A DNA stretch of 64,000 nt from Octopus vulgaris. Lineage: Eukaryota. The stretch lies in contig OX597822.1 of assembly GCA_951406725.2 (NCBI GenBank), positions 13,082,001-13,146,000 on the forward strand. Reading direction: 5' to 3'. The notes beneath the pieces were generated by a model. It saw only the letters and a program-made list of their open reading frames with translations, was not told the origin of the DNA and ran no database searches. Made by a program: the position numbers and the translations under genes. This document shows, piece after piece, positions 4,419 to 58,562 of this stretch. Each line of letters opens with the position of its first letter. The first letter of the stretch is position 1.

Positions 4419-4961
4419 GTCTGTTTCTTTTTAATGTTGTTATAAATACAAACTAACTTTAAACACACGACTTCCTCGGCATTTATTGTTAGGGTACATA
4501 TTTAATTTAACAAGCTACCGTTTAACAATGAATTCAAAATTTCAACTTGCACACATTTATCAGACATTTGATGAAGGCAAGCAAGGTGAAACACTGGACT
4601 CACTGTCAACCTTTTCGTTGTCAAAATTAATGTATATTAGTGTTGGTATGCACAAACACGAACACACACACACACACACACAAACACAGAGGCATATATG
4701 CCTACTTACATATATATGCATATGTACCGGTATATATGTATATATATATATATATATAGATATATATATATATATATATATATATATATATATATATATA
4801 TATATATATATATATATATATATATATATATATATATATATATACTAAATTCAGAGTGAATACTTGATAAATGTAAGCACCTGTATATGCCAGCTATTGG
4901 CATAGGTGATAGGATATATGTATCAAATGAAGTAAATGAAAAACAGGACGCAAAGGATTTT

Positions 4962-5054
4962 GCGGTACATATGTTTCGGGCTTCATTGAACAACTTATTC
5001 TTATATCAATGCATAATTGATATAACAGATAGATCAAAAGCCTTCTTCAGCCGC
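4962..5054 (-). ncRNA. Minimal type-I hammerhead ribozyme motif
   Basis: Minus strand reads gcgg CTGAAGA aggctt...aagccc GAAA catatg TA ccgc. Confidence 0.8.
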
Positions 5055-5286
5055 GTACAATTACCACACTAAGGACATGTATCACATTATAACAGGTTTG
5101 AGAAATAGTTTGAGAAAAACCGAGTTTCATTAGGAAAGTAAATCCTCATAGGCGTACATGATATTGCTAGACTCCATAACCATGTACGCCTATAAGGATT
5201 TACTTTCATAATGAAACTCGGTTTTTCTCAAACTATTTCTCAAACATGTTATAATGTGATACATGCCCTTAGTGTGGTAATTGTAC

Positions 5287-5379
5287 GCGGCTGAAGAAGG
5301 CTTTTGATCTATCTGTTATATCAATTATGCATTGATATAAGAATAAGTTGTTCAATAAAGCCCGAAACATATGTACCGC
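5287..5379 (+). ncRNA. Minimal type-I hammerhead ribozyme motif
   Basis: gcgg CTGAAGA aggcttt...aaagccc GAAA catatg TA ccgc: stem I gcgg/ccgc, stem II ggcttt/aaagcc, palindromic stem III, GUA site. Confidence 0.8.
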
Positions 5380-6567
5380 AAAATCCTTTGCGTCCTGTTT
5401 TTCATTTACTTCATTTGATACACACACACACATATATATACATATATATATATATATATATATATGTGTGTGTGTGTGTATGTGTGTGTGTGTGTGTGTG
5501 TGTGTGTGTGTGTGTGTGTGTGTGTTTATGTATGTAAATATATATATACATATACATATTTATGTATACATACTTATAGACTATATGCATATATGTACAC
5601 TCATATATGTGGTAGAGAAAGAAACAGACATGCAGAAATGGAAGGTGAGAGAGAGAGGAGAATGCTGTGCACATAGATAGATAGATAGATAGATAGATAG
5701 ATAGATAGATAGATAGATAGATAGATAGATAGATAGATAGATAGATAGATAGGTAGGTAGGTAGGTAGGTAGGTAGGTAGGTAGGTAGGTAGGTATGTAG
5801 GTAGGTAGATATGTATGTGTATGCATTTATATATACCAAATTCACATGCGATGGTTTTCTCAGCCGGAACACATACTCAGAGCGGCACACGGAAACCACG
5901 TGATTGACAATAGAAACCCTAAACCACAAAAACTATGTTTGTGCCTACACAACTATGAAGAGAAACATCATGTGAATTCAGTAATTTAATCTTCATTACT
6001 ATTTCGAAAGATCTGGAATCACCAATGGAACAATGATCACATCAAGTTATGCTGCCCGTAAATCTTGTCCTGGTTTCACGTGCAAATCACCATTTAATGA
6101 GAAATGAGAATATTTCTGACATTAAGGTCAAAAGTTTAAAAGTAATTTATTCCTTATAATTTATTTATCTATATATATATATATTTAATATATATAATTT
6201 ATTTATATATATATATATTTAGTTCTAATGTGTGTATTATTTAAATAAGTGAGGCTTTATTTTCATAGTATGTATGCTCATTCATTTTATATTCCAGAGA
6301 AATTTTGAACGATATAGTCGTAGACATAACTGTGTGGTAAGAAGTTTGCTTCTCAACCACATGGTTCCGAGTTCAGCCCCACTGTGTGTCTTCTACTATA
6401 GCTTCTGACGGACCAAAACGTTGAGAGTGGATTTGGTAGAGGGAAACTGAAATAAGCCCCTTCTATATGTGTGTGTGTGTGTGTGTGTGGCCACAGCCTT
6501 TGGCTGAAACATAAAAAAAGAGAAGAATAAAATTATATATATATATAGATATACATATATATACATA

Positions 6568-7225
6568 TATAATTATAAATTAGGGTATCTACGAGATACC
6601 ACCATGCTGAAAATAGCAGTCGTGATCTGGCTCTAAAACCACATGTGAAGGTTATTTTTTACATGCTAGCCACTTGATAAACTCGTAATTTTATTTTAAA
6701 TTAACGATCTTATCCTTATTTGTATAAATTTAAATTTATTTCGTCACTGTATTTACTGCGGTGATATTTTAACTATATCTCACATGGAATTAAACGGCGG
6801 GCATTTTGAATTGGCCATGATGCATACGTGCATATATGTGTATGTATACGTTCATATATGTAAGTATTCGTATGTTGTATTTATATATATATATGTATTT
6901 ATGATTCTTTTCTGTGTGTATTCTACTGACGAGGCAAAGCATTCCAATATGCAAAGTCAAAAATCCGGGATCTAGAATTATCCAGTAATTTTTTACTAGC
7001 TTTATATTGTAGCTTTATATTGTCTCTTTGTTTTCTCTCTGTGTTTGCGATATGGCCAATTAAGGTGGTTTTAAAGTCAGATCATGACTGCTATTTTCAG
7101 CATGGTGGTATCTCGTAGATACCCTAATTTATAATTTTAATAATTATTACCTTTGACGGTTATTTTTTTCCATGCTGGCCACTTGATAAAATCGTTATTT
7201 TATTTTAAATTAACGATCTTATCGA
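6568..7225. mobile_element. Penelope-like pseudo-LTR module (inverted plus direct repeats) with degenerate hammerhead
   Basis: 6568-6642 inverted to about 7066-7135; about 6650-6714 directly repeated at about 7158-7223; attcta CTGACGA ggc...gtc aaaaa tccggga TC tagaat at 6920-6978. Confidence 0.65.
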
Positions 7226-56265: not shown

Positions 56266-56755
56266 CTAGCTGACCCTGAGCCGTCAAAAAAGACGGCTAA
56301 TTGTTATAATCTATATATAAATAAGGTACATAATAATCTCACATACCATCATTCACATACTTCCGTTGTACATGCATAAACATACACACTCACACAAAGT
56401 TGAAATGCTGTTTTTTTTTTTTTCGTTTCGGCGTTGAACGTTCACCATCCCACTTCCATTGCAGACACACACACATATATACACACACACACACACACAC
56501 ACATACATTCACATACATCCATTTTACATAGACAAACATATACTCACACAGAGTTGAAACGCTGTTTGTTTTCATCCCTTTCTTCCTTATTCACCTATCA
56601 CCCCTTCTTTCTCTCATTGCTATTGCTTTCTCTCACTCTCTCTCTCTCAGTCTAGGCTATTCCTCTTACTTCTGCCTGAATTACTATTTTCTCTCCCTCC
56701 CCTTCACTTATACTACTTTCTCTTACTCCGTCCTACCGTCCTACTCCTACTCAGT
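56266..56755 (-). mobile_element. Probable Helitron 3' end (different family)
   Basis: TA|CTAG followed by hairpin gccgtc aaaaaa gacggc; far boundary uncertain. Confidence 0.5.
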
Positions 56756-56816
56756 GATTTTGGATATATATATATATATATATATATATATATATATATA
56801 TATATATATATATATA

Positions 56817-57200
56817 CTAGCAGTATCGCACGGCGTTGCTCGGGTTTGTTTCGACCCTATAGAATTAGAATTTTTGAAAAGTAAAAATTTTGCATTATGT
56901 AGCTTGTTATTCTCTTTAAGTGAGCATCTTTCAGGTTGAAATACACAGAAAAATGGCGACACAGCAGTCAAAAAATCGTAAAAAATAGGGATTTTCATAG
57001 AAGAAAGAGCACCTTTTTATGTAAATAATTTTTGGTGTTAACATGGTCCGATTTGATTTTTTTTCTTCTACGGATGGAAGAGCAAGCCTTCTTCTATCAT
57101 ACTCTCAATTTTGGTCAACTTGCGCACCAGGGTCTCGGAGGCGATAGTGTTAGTTGAAGGCTACAAAACCTACCATACACAGACAACTTCAGCTTTATAT
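56817..57200 (-). mobile_element. Non-autonomous Helitron sharing its 3' end with the 983-1382 family
   Basis: ctagcagtatcgcacggcgttgctcgggtttg end, different body, similar acagacaactt...tttatata 5' region. Confidence 0.7.
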
Positions 57201-57338
57201 ATATATATATATATATATATATATATATATGTATGTATGTATGTAAGTATGTATATATATATGTATGTATATAAGGACAACTTACTTGGAAATGTATGCG
57301 TGGCGTTCAATCAAATAATAATATAAATAATATATATA

Positions 57339-58562
57339 GGCGTAAGAATGGCTGTGTGGTAAGTAGCTTACTTACCAACCACATGGTTCCAGGTTCAGTC
57401 CCATTGCGTGGCACCTTGGGCAAGTGTCTTCTACTATAACCGTGGGCCGATCAAAGCTTTATGAGTGGATTTGGTATACGGAAACTGAAAGAAGCCCGTC
57501 GTATATATGTATATGTATATATATATATATATATATATATATATATATATATATATATATATATATATAATATATATATATATATCTTATAAGCAAGGGC
57601 TAAAGAAGATTATTCTAAAGCCAATATACTGATATTCCACATTTAATCCGCTTGCTACAGAAAATTGAACTGAAATTCGGGCAACTAATCATTGGAACGT
57701 CTAAATTTCGTTATTTCAATATTGAATCAATTTCGGAATTAACCACATAAGGGTTCGTTCTTCATCAGTTGAACTTACGAGAGAATATAATTAGGGTACT
57801 TACATGCGCCTATTGGAACAGCCGAAGCGAATAACACAAATACATCTAAGTAACTCAACTATATCTAAAAATAAAAATTCTTATGTCAGTCTCAGGACAA
57901 CATGTTGACTTTCCGCCGATACATATTGTAGTGGTTACAAGTCCCCTGTAGCAAGCAGTAATGAGTTTACTACTATTAAAAAAGGTTTAAGTTTTTTTCT
58001 TTAGAGAAAAGTATTCCATCAGGAAGTGTGGCAGTATATTAAAAGAACCTTTACGCTTCTTTTAATATACTAACTGATGAAGAACGAACCCTTATGTGGT
58101 AAATTCCGAAATTGATTCAATATTGAAATAACGAAATTTAGACGTTCCAATGGTTAGTTGCCCGAATTTCAGTTCAATTTTCTGTAGCAAGCGGATTAAA
58201 TGTGGAATATCAGTATATTGGCTTTAGAATAATCTTCTTTAGCCCTTGCTTATAAGATATTTATAATTTAATATACTGCTACACTTCCTGATGGAATTCT
58301 TTTCTGTAGGGAAAAAAACTTCATCCTTTTTTAATAGTATATATATATATGTATGTGTGTGTATGTTTGTATGTCTGTGTTTGTCCCCCCTCAACATCGC
58401 TTGACAAACAAGGCTAGTGCGTTTACGTCCTCGTGACTTAGCGGTTCGCCTAAAGAGAATGATAGAATAAGTATTGAGCTTACAATAAGATCTGGGGTTG
58501 ATTTGCTCGACTACAGGCGGTGCTCCAGCATGGCCACAGTTACATGACTGAAACAAGTAAAG
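57339..58562 (+). mobile_element. SINE family A split by a fold-back module in its central (TA)n
   Basis: Head 57339-57505, tail about 58370-58562. Confidence 0.8.
57582..58340. mobile_element. Fold-back module with hammerhead in each arm
   Basis: 57582-57770 inverted to 58072-58260; 57970-58043 inverted to 58267-58340. Minus 57715-57773: ttcaa CTGATGA agaacgaacc...ggttaattcc GAAA ttgattcaa TA ttgaa. Confidence 0.85.

Follow-up and report, generated by a model that had tools for sequence, protein, structure and literature searches.

The integration signature of Penelope-like elements (PLEs) consists of 5′ truncation, an inverted 5′ copy and an optional tail (PMC8557442), the tail being linked, in work on an anole element, to two start sites of the reverse transcriptase (RT) (PMC11167929). 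One PLE clade, Hydra, is defined by a CxCX5C linker, the absence of CCHH and the presence of CxxC and CxH around E and N (PMC8557442), and the supplement of that source lists Hydra-1_Obim of Octopus bimaculoides with a (TA)n preference and gives Hydra hammerheads canonical cores and a palindromic stem III of 8-9 nt. Retrozymes are also pertinent, being active and giving circles in coral, mussel and axolotl (PMC7229834). The present concern is a 64,000-nt stretch of the Octopus vulgaris genome (GCA_951406725.2, contig OX597822.1:13,082,001-13,146,000), termed the window, with positions counted from its start, in which a prior sequence-only reading had listed eight hammerhead loci. The interpretation preferred here, with a probability put at roughly 0.85, is that the loci are PLE 3′ ends with type-I hammerheads, comprising truncated autonomous Hydra copies (19.8 and 44 kb) and tandem units (6.9, 23.5, 49.1 and 57.7 kb) likely mobilized by such elements, with self-cleavage predicted for the dimer.

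Within the window, which has 35% GC and is rich in microsatellites, a strict descriptor (stem I of at least 4 bp, CUGANGA, GAAA, a perfect palindromic stem III of 6-14 nt, and UH) picks out five type-I hammerheads as intact, spread over four loci (-5050, +5291, +23512, +49124 and -57768, the sign giving the strand). Over 300 shuffles per descriptor, 100 each keeping 2-, 3- or 5-mers, the strict means are 0-0.06 with a maximum of 1, which bears out the claim that the motifs are real and enriched over shuffled sequence. With stem I relaxed to 3 bp there are eight motifs versus a shuffled mean of at most 0.24, with one core mismatch allowed eight versus at most 1.09, and in each of nine settings none of 100 shuffles reaches the observed count. 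As to the eight listed loci, a complete canonical motif is present at three (5.0/5.3, 23.5 and 57.7 kb), the other five being damaged or decayed, and the estimate of about one locus per 8 kb holds when decayed copies are counted but not for intact motifs, which occupy four loci in 64 kb. The proposed check with Rfam covariance models was negative, there being 0 gathering matches in the window; at E<=10 no hammerhead is among the 24 and 42 matches in two window slices, and the 150 of 340 matches listed are all to miRNA families.

As the descriptor was devised after the loci had been seen, additional non-circular tests were run on stem I, on stem III and on an unbiased sample of 400 kb (40 stretches of 10 kb at round-number positions in the 2.8-Gb, 227-contig assembly). 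The sample holds 14 strict motifs, in 11 of its 40 stretches, while ten decoy 5′ cores have 0-1 matches each and six decoy 3′ cores 0-2. When the stem I requirement is dropped, 10 of 15 matches still have 4-6 Watson-Crick pairs (the remaining five have 0-2), and with swapped halves as control 0% reach 3 pairs. When the palindrome requirement is dropped, an eye count of the first 100 genome matches gives about 69 perfect palindromes, of 12 kinds. A wider set of 187 distinct strict motifs, from 2.06 Mb of loci that overlap and are biased toward the query families, groups into 28 clusters, among which 22 palindromes occur; over these clusters the stems vary around a constant catalytic core and UH, a constancy that the descriptor partly forces. 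The expected covariation, with stems varying and the core kept, is thus upheld by the non-circular tests of both stems, and is between families, few changes occurring inside a family. A preference for TA tracts is likewise supported, 10 of the 14 unbiased motifs having (TA)5 within 250 nt downstream, compared to 14% of random points, and five of 14 within the same distance upstream. TA adjacency inside the window alone is weak evidence, because 150 (TA)5 tracts lie there.

Genome-wide counts of three patterns exceed those of the reversed patterns in each case: 17,309 versus 1,542 for an 8-nt stem III with 8-38 nt between cores, 41,025 versus 1,650 with 39-69 nt between cores, and 25,643 versus 1,785 for the 9-nt spacing, where one very abundant family with a 4-nt palindrome accounts for about half of the first 100 rows. 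Together there are about 84,000 matches versus about 5,000 controls, an excess of about 79,000, or one per ~35 kb, which contains some pattern overlap and imperfect copies. The unbiased sample corresponds to a strict motif every 29 kb; direct pattern counting is given preference because the sample overshoots one of the families, F31, about fivefold, its three matches implying ~21,000 where the exact count is 4,203. Exact 3′ halves of another family, F44, number 5,989 against five control matches.

All loci searched have dispersed relatives, with 528-2,245 first-look candidates per family (F5, F6.9, F23, F31, F44, F49 and F57 are the families named here); a locus represents the 3′ end of such a repeat, which is mostly truncated on its 5′ side, stops at (TA)n and is frequently accompanied by an inverted copy. 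In six families the first TA tract follows the predicted cut at either of two distances: 37 or 108 nt for F31, ~40-65 or 120 for F5, 136 or 236 for F57, 151 or 253 for F6.9, 161 or 291 for F49, and 193-201 or 295-301 for F23; F44 ends at 60-72 nt or ~130 nt further. The integration marks of PLEs are all found, i.e. 5′ truncation, partial tandems, an inverted 5′ copy and an optional 3′ tail, with tails of 70-130 nt. In head-to-head insertions the tail is usually on one arm only. Inverted repeats, claimed for most loci, are present at six of the eight, with none seen at 23.5 and 48.3 kb. That the inverted arms at six loci, the 150 (TA)5 tracts and the chance origin of one listed motif (at 48231) reflect MITE-like fold-back DNA transposons, or chance matches in an AT-rich, microsatellite-rich genome, is scarcely credible: the shuffle, decoy and reversed-pattern controls stand against it, and the inversion point differs from copy to copy, with many copies having no inversion, so that this explanation is regarded as refuted. 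PLE 3′ ends, with the Penelope link, palindromic stem III and several non-autonomous families all supported, are the reading carried forward.

The tie to an autonomous element is closest for F44, the family of the 44-kb locus, and it is for this family only that the proposed association with Penelope RT and GIY-YIG open reading frames (ORFs) was found upstream. Walking upstream from a long F44 copy leads through a 3′ untranslated region (UTR) to a GIY-YIG endonuclease and, before it, the RT. Of 30 endonuclease loci, 21 carry the sequence of window 44.46-44.69 kb downstream on the same strand; the other nine may in part be truncations, since the loci stop 1.5 kb beyond the match. Read in one frame, CxCX5C is present in 17 of 30, VIY..YIG in 22, CxxC before E in 24 and CxH after N in 24, with CxxC between VIY and YIG in one and no internal CxxC seen in the other 29. 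The Pfam GIY-YIG match to this endonuclease is weak (E 0.011, under the cut-off). An assignment to Nematis-like endonucleases was dropped, the motif list in PMC8557442 fitting Hydra. Because RT and endonuclease with Hydra motifs run into a hammerhead and (TA)n, the 19.8/44-kb family is read, from sequence, as an old, 5′-truncated autonomous Hydra-clade PLE, and (TA)n insertion and a canonical hammerhead, both features of that clade, are found with it. The F44 copies compared start downstream of the RWK and DKT motifs of the N-terminal RT, DKT being present in another Hydra-like RT (L055, minus strand 356-1135). Two further Hydra-like endonuclease loci (L281 and L316) run to a hammerhead and then (TA)n, so that at least three Hydra-like endonuclease types are linked to hammerheads in this genome; others end before a TA tract or motif could be scored (L098) or at the end of the locus (L114), and L173 has no motif. 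In a longer homolog search with the F44 endonuclease domain none of 57 candidates scored, a result that counts for little in either direction.

Other autonomous PLEs are abundant. Pfam GIY-YIG yields 6,136 candidates, the top being a young family with a 781-codon RT plus GIY-YIG frame, and a homolog search with the Neptune-type ORF gave 561 relatives. The Neptune-type label is from a CX2-5CxxC linker and an internal CxxC. In the family concerned (L051, at G000:C16:20,834,500-20,842,000, L052 and L053) many copies have the 781-codon frame in common; a ~350-codon frame lies upstream of it, a pLTR meets (TA)n at either end, and most relatives carry a U3-A8 hammerhead. A second young Neptune-type family (L209, L360-L389; 16,943 first-look candidates, the top 150 at 96-100% identity) also has a U3-A8 hammerhead, with a ~40-nt tail. 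A further autonomous family, represented by L293 and by window 31950-32030 (-), has a minimal hammerhead with T or C at core position 6, where A is usual, and a variable position 7, in many copies; L357 (1567-2850) holds a divergent PLE RT plus endonuclease at 25-29% to Neptune-type proteins. Four Neptune-type families end at (TA)n just past the hammerhead, with variant cores and short palindromes, and tails are ~40 nt in the two measured. The young families were considered as partners of the listed loci and rejected, the layout being alike but the sequence not shared: 12 window pieces compared with Neptune-type 3′ UTRs gave no blastn match at E<1e-3, and the piece at -32012, compared separately, is the sole window piece that does match such a family. 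PLE ORF fragments beside F23, F49 and F44 copies (L108, L209, L313 and L357) are likewise separate elements, a TA tract dividing fragment from copy in L108, L209 and L313.

Several families have a different organization. The F23 unit is 583 nt and occurs in a 10-copy array between TA tracts, that of F49 is 535 nt and occurs in a 22-copy array of constant period and near-identical units, and that of F57 is 490 nt, while F6.9 closes on itself at ~500 nt, in the window too, with only partial tandems seen. The longest stop-free frames are 69 aa (F23), 66 aa (F49) and 94 aa (F57). Non-coding status, as had been claimed, holds in the window, the longest stop-free frame across 11 element intervals being 91 aa, and tblastn with PLE proteins had no match anywhere in it. 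These four families are read as retrozymes lacking long terminal repeats (non-LTR), with one type-I hammerhead per tandem unit and three of them shown to be non-coding. That every family is instead a 5′-truncated autonomous PLE, leaving no non-autonomous class, is very improbable: it is true of F44 and could find an echo in F31 (below), but the closed head-to-tail units of F23, F49 and F57, with their short frames, and the closure of F6.9 refute it for all four. The claim of non-autonomous families is therefore sustained for F6.9, F23, F49 and F57 and not for the 19.8/44-kb family.

Same-strand F31 pairs lie 3,352-3,365 bp apart (C1:63,048,513/63,051,865; 64,214,601/64,217,963; 64,218,657/64,222,022). 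The spacing approximates the size of a full element, and the pairs are likely a young full-length one.

It is improbable that the arrays are immobile satellites that single PLE 3′ ends gave rise to through slippage or unequal crossover. The constant 535-nt period and near-identity of the 22 F49 units would suit such growth, and local amplification is discussed as a route (Li 2026, 10.64898/2026.07.22.740005). Yet dispersed copies of 0.7-1.5 units occur on many contigs, stopping at (TA)n at 3′ positions peculiar to the family and bearing inverted 5′ pieces, the F23 and F49 copies at 97-99% identity, and the sequence upstream of a unit is the unit's own tail, with no ORF. As mobile retrozymes, the units would by their canonical core, long palindrome and long tail group with Hydra and not with Neptune.

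How such units might be processed is suggested by folding. As a monomer hairpin, stem III is 2-4 bp at +1.8 to +2.4 kcal/mol; as a dimer it is a duplex of 8-11 nt at -6.4 to -11.1 kcal/mol. PLE hammerhead dimers have reportedly been dealt with by Lunse et al., as a review's citation has it. In three of four two-unit folds from natural arrays the unconstrained minimum free energy (MFE) structure is a double hammerhead with unpaired cores; this holds for F23 at either flank length, 40 or 150 nt (stem III p 0.7-0.96), and for F49 when the flanks are 40 nt (p 0.75-0.89). Dimer cleavage of tandem copies is accordingly a prediction of the folding model. In the envisaged cycle, a tandem source locus would be transcribed across at least two units, neighboring hammerheads would form a double hammerhead through their palindromic stem III and cleave just past NUH, and the cuts would release unit-length RNA, possibly circularized. 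A PLE endonuclease would then nick (TA)n, and the two 3′ ends would reflect a choice of RT start, either 40-200 or 110-300 nt past the ribozyme; 5′-truncated and inverted copies would result when synthesis stopped early or switched strands.

The situation differs for fold-back insertions. Here the inverted layout described in the sequence-only reading is present, but as a module it is likely a by-product of integration and is predicted to bury the ribozyme. Folding of two such loci, at 5 kb and at 57.7 kb, leaves the whole core base-paired with the antisense arm, because of which the fold-back copies are likely silent as ribozymes, to judge from the models. Most single copies, those of the window included, are likely inert. 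With regard to transcripts, 22-30 of 30 bins of the F23 unit are covered by four runs guessed to be RNA, all consisting of contigs, where one 282-nt contig extends beyond both F23 3′ ends. A head-to-tail joint in F23 contigs was considered as a sign of circles and set aside, since it coincides with the arbitrary unit cut and so is uninformative. In contigs of run X3 the commonest differences from the F23 unit at L155:6591-7173 are T>C (nine places) and A>G (four), copy variation and RNA editing being indistinguishable.

A number of points weigh against the preferred interpretation. Upstream extension found neither tandem unit nor ORF for F5 and reached no closed unit or ORF for F31, and these two families and the 32.7-kb motif keep a putative status. 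The F44 copies are old and broken, with no intact Hydra ORF seen. No homology was found between the non-coding units and the non-Hydra autonomous 3′ UTRs with which they were compared, and because no shared sequence was found the case for their mobilizer is one of architecture. The F49 two-unit fold does not favor the double hammerhead with 150-nt flanks (p ~0.03). PLE hammerheads show low cleavage in vitro (PMC4209133), only one of nine Xenopus retrozyme dimers cleaved (Li 2026, 10.64898/2026.07.22.740005), and cleavage is not needed for insertion of the anole PLE (PMC11167929).

The last of these bears on a reading in which the elements are the same and the hammerhead fold is kept mainly as a structure for protein binding or RT positioning, cleavage being slow, protein-dependent or dispensable. 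This is considered unlikely, though it deserves to be taken seriously: the anole hammerhead cleaves only when protein is present, and mutants of its core were nonetheless able to insert in vitro (PMC11167929), young autonomous Neptune-type families have altered cores (U3-A8, U4C, variable position 6), and 3′ ends are at fixed distances from the motif. Set against it are the core and UH held constant over 28 clusters while the stems change, albeit partly by imposition of the descriptor, the fact that U3-A8 is itself a compensating pair, and the cleavage and circle formation of related retrozymes in coral, mussel and axolotl (PMC7229834). PLE 3′ ends whose hammerheads would cleave as dimers thus remain the favored account of the loci.

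The individual window copies, which cover ~8% of it, mostly carry core or stem damage. The F5 insertion (4845..5422) has two head-to-head arms of 242 nt, 98% complementary, the left with an extra 3′ tail and adjoining (TA)n at 4731-4844; its intact hammerheads are at 4962..5054 (-), with a 4-bp stem I, 66 nt between cores, an 8-nt palindrome and a predicted cut after 4966, and at 5287..5379 (+), with a predicted cut after 5375. F6.9 (6568..7233, +) is ~1.2 copies of its ~500-nt unit, with a direct repeat (6646-6724/7154-7233) and a 75-nt inverted 3′ end (6568-6642), and the descriptor scan places its hammerhead at 6921-6977 (+). An old F44-related copy of ~70% identity (19295..20013, +) has a decayed inverted arm (19295-19458), a tail reaching a CA/TA tract and a hammerhead at 19766-19806 (+). 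The GAAA that had been ascribed to the 6.9- and 19.8-kb motifs is absent, both reading AAAA (G12A). F23 (23351..23788, +) comprises 438 nt of the 583-nt non-coding unit, with (TA)n on both sides and an intact hammerhead at 23506-23596. F31 (31740..31915) is a short head-to-head pair between (TA)n tracts, with a 71-nt tail on the left arm; the motif claimed there is partial, the plus copy (31849-31882) being without the 5′ arm of stem I and the minus copy broken inside stem III.

In F44 (44049..44705) the arms are 254 nt and 88% complementary, with a ~130-nt tail on the left one. Of its two claimed motifs, that at 44243-44290 (-) has a stem I mismatch and that at 44581-44628 (+) the core CCGAUGA, which could be tolerated, as the same core is found in other families of this genome. 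The pairing proposed at 48.2-48.4 kb is by chance: the CUGAAGA at 48231 is 168 nt from the GAAA, and alignment to a relative (L164) places the true, decayed 5′ core at 48350-48356, with two changes, within a decayed copy of a related family (48300..48545, +) whose 3′ half is intact (48406-48421). F57 (57577..58339) is a near-full 490-nt unit on the minus strand, with an intact hammerhead at 57715-57773; its plus copy starts two bases before the core (58074), the 58.1-kb arm being cut inside stem I, and terminates in a ~95-nt tail. Three motifs were outside the earlier list. One, at +49124, is the intact hammerhead (49117-49199) of F49 (48741..49603, +), which lies between (TA)n tracts and has 1.5 copies of the non-coding 535-nt unit plus an inverted piece of 39 nt. 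Another, at +32718 (32712..32798), has a 6-bp stem I, one G-U in stem III and a TA run 74 nt downstream; no relative is among the family loci compared, no genome-wide search having been made. The third (~-32012) is a decayed minimal variant, with a 4-nt palindrome and variable position 6, in the decayed 3′ end of an autonomous Neptune-type PLE (31950..32030, -). Among family loci elsewhere the intact share is 21 of 30 for F5, 25 of 30 for F23, 18 of 30 for F44 and 17 of 20 for F57, a few matches being to other families in the flanks.

Other repeats share the window. One family is present in opposite orientations at 1-962, 23820-24335 and 30169-31129, the long pair at 93-95%, with a 296-aa frame that has no Pfam match and that we take to resemble the C-terminus of a LINE RT; one copy is adjacent to F23, and a second is broken by a TA tract. 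The minus strand has a pair of non-LTR retrotransposon fragments, related to each other (51131-52000 and 54478-54858), with a weak zf-RVT match (E 0.001, under the cut-off), and frames at 14371-14891 (-) and 46418-46912 (+) have a putative resemblance to Tc1/mariner transposase fragments. An abundant SINE-like repeat forms an inverted pair (15684-15933/17627-17876, 86%), further SINE-like copies are spread over the window, often beside TA tracts, and a 103-bp tandem repeat occurs three times at 36924-37229 (91% matches).

The kind of element is already known, an octopus Hydra element with hammerhead and (TA)n targeting having been published (PMC8557442). Seemingly not reported before are the abundance of the motifs, the range of their families, the tandem units that are non-autonomous and tails 70-130 nt long. 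Judging by the papers listed in literature searches, no cephalopod genome has been surveyed for hammerheads or retrozymes, though supplements of PMC4209133, PMC7229834, PMC13282606 and 10.64898/2026.07.22.740005 may hold such counts or families; the 2026 repeat annotation of O. vulgaris (PMC13282606) does not use the word 'ribozyme' in its main text. The scale in this genome is likely to be unusually large, published counts being 2,000 for schistosome, 4,000 for coelacanth and 9,000 for Xenopus (PMC4209133), and >6,000 for coral, ~5,000 for mussel and up to 120,000 for axolotl (PMC7229834), whose genome is 28 Gb (Li 2026, 10.64898/2026.07.22.740005), though differing descriptors make the comparison rough. 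It may tentatively be proposed, at slightly short of even odds, that a retrozyme bloom driven by the Hydra clade has produced 80,000-100,000 hammerheads in dozens of families, that young non-autonomous units of 490-583 nt have their 70-130-nt tails in common with Hydra PLEs and not with Neptune-type ones (~40 nt), that circular RNAs made from these units are abundant, and that their fold-back insertions add long perfect double-stranded RNA to the transcriptome. The density, one per ~30-35 kb, is above the counts read for axolotl, frog and schistosome. If correct, tail length would be a mark of the mobilizing clade. The families extend the PLE-retrozyme link to a large invertebrate genome, non-vertebrates being named as untested (Li 2026, 10.64898/2026.07.22.740005). 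F23 and F49 offer young, near-identical substrates whose natural tandem context is predicted to form a double hammerhead, permitting a direct test of the role of PLE hammerheads. The families also suggest that part of the unclassified octopus repeats are ribozyme-bearing PLE derivatives. No host function is indicated for the window copies.

Comparison with described systems gives a graded picture. The minimal hammerheads of metazoan PLEs (PMC4209133) are alike in a stem I of 4-7 bp, an enlarged stem II, an often unpaired base after A9, a palindromic stem III, mostly single dispersed copies, the U3-A8 variant and opposite-strand pairs 100-700 bp apart, and differ in that window palindromes are longer (8-11 nt) and in number, ~80,000 here versus 2,000-9,000 with different descriptors. 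Neptune-type PLEs of the same genome share the hammerhead, short 3′ end, optional tail and (TA)n, and differ by variant cores, 4-6-nt palindromes, ~40-nt tails and the lack of homology to the listed loci. Animal non-LTR retrozymes (PMC7229834; 10.64898/2026.07.22.740005) resemble the tandem units in being non-coding head-to-tail units with one type-I hammerhead each, low GC (0.32-0.36), monomers to 22-mers and co-occurrence with autonomous PLEs, and the F23 and F49 units fold well as circles relative to a crude shuffle. Unit lengths are 490-583 nt here, versus 150-450 (PMC7229834) and 51-972 (10.64898/2026.07.22.740005), the octopus units being unlike published retrozymes in having 27-60 nt between cores and PLE integration marks (tails, inversions and a TA target); no cephalopod was seen in the text of either source. 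Closest are the Hydra-clade PLEs described in PMC8557442, with which F44 shares the C-terminal GIY-YIG without CCHH, CxCX5C, CxxC/CxH, (TA)n, a CUGANGA hammerhead near the 3′ end and the 8-9-nt palindromic stem III, although its 3′ UTR of ~1.0-1.6 kb and ~130-nt tail contrast with elements of <3 kb and a PLE tail of 30-40 bp. Judged by eye against the same source, its RT follows the published alignment of Hydra-1_Obim, a genome match at C1:1,328,887 is very similar to the Hydra-1_oBim hammerhead, and the F31 motif differs from that of the coral Hydra-2_aMil mainly in stem II. Where PMC8557442 gives one octopus Hydra family, the present genome has at least three Hydra-like endonuclease types and many more motif families.

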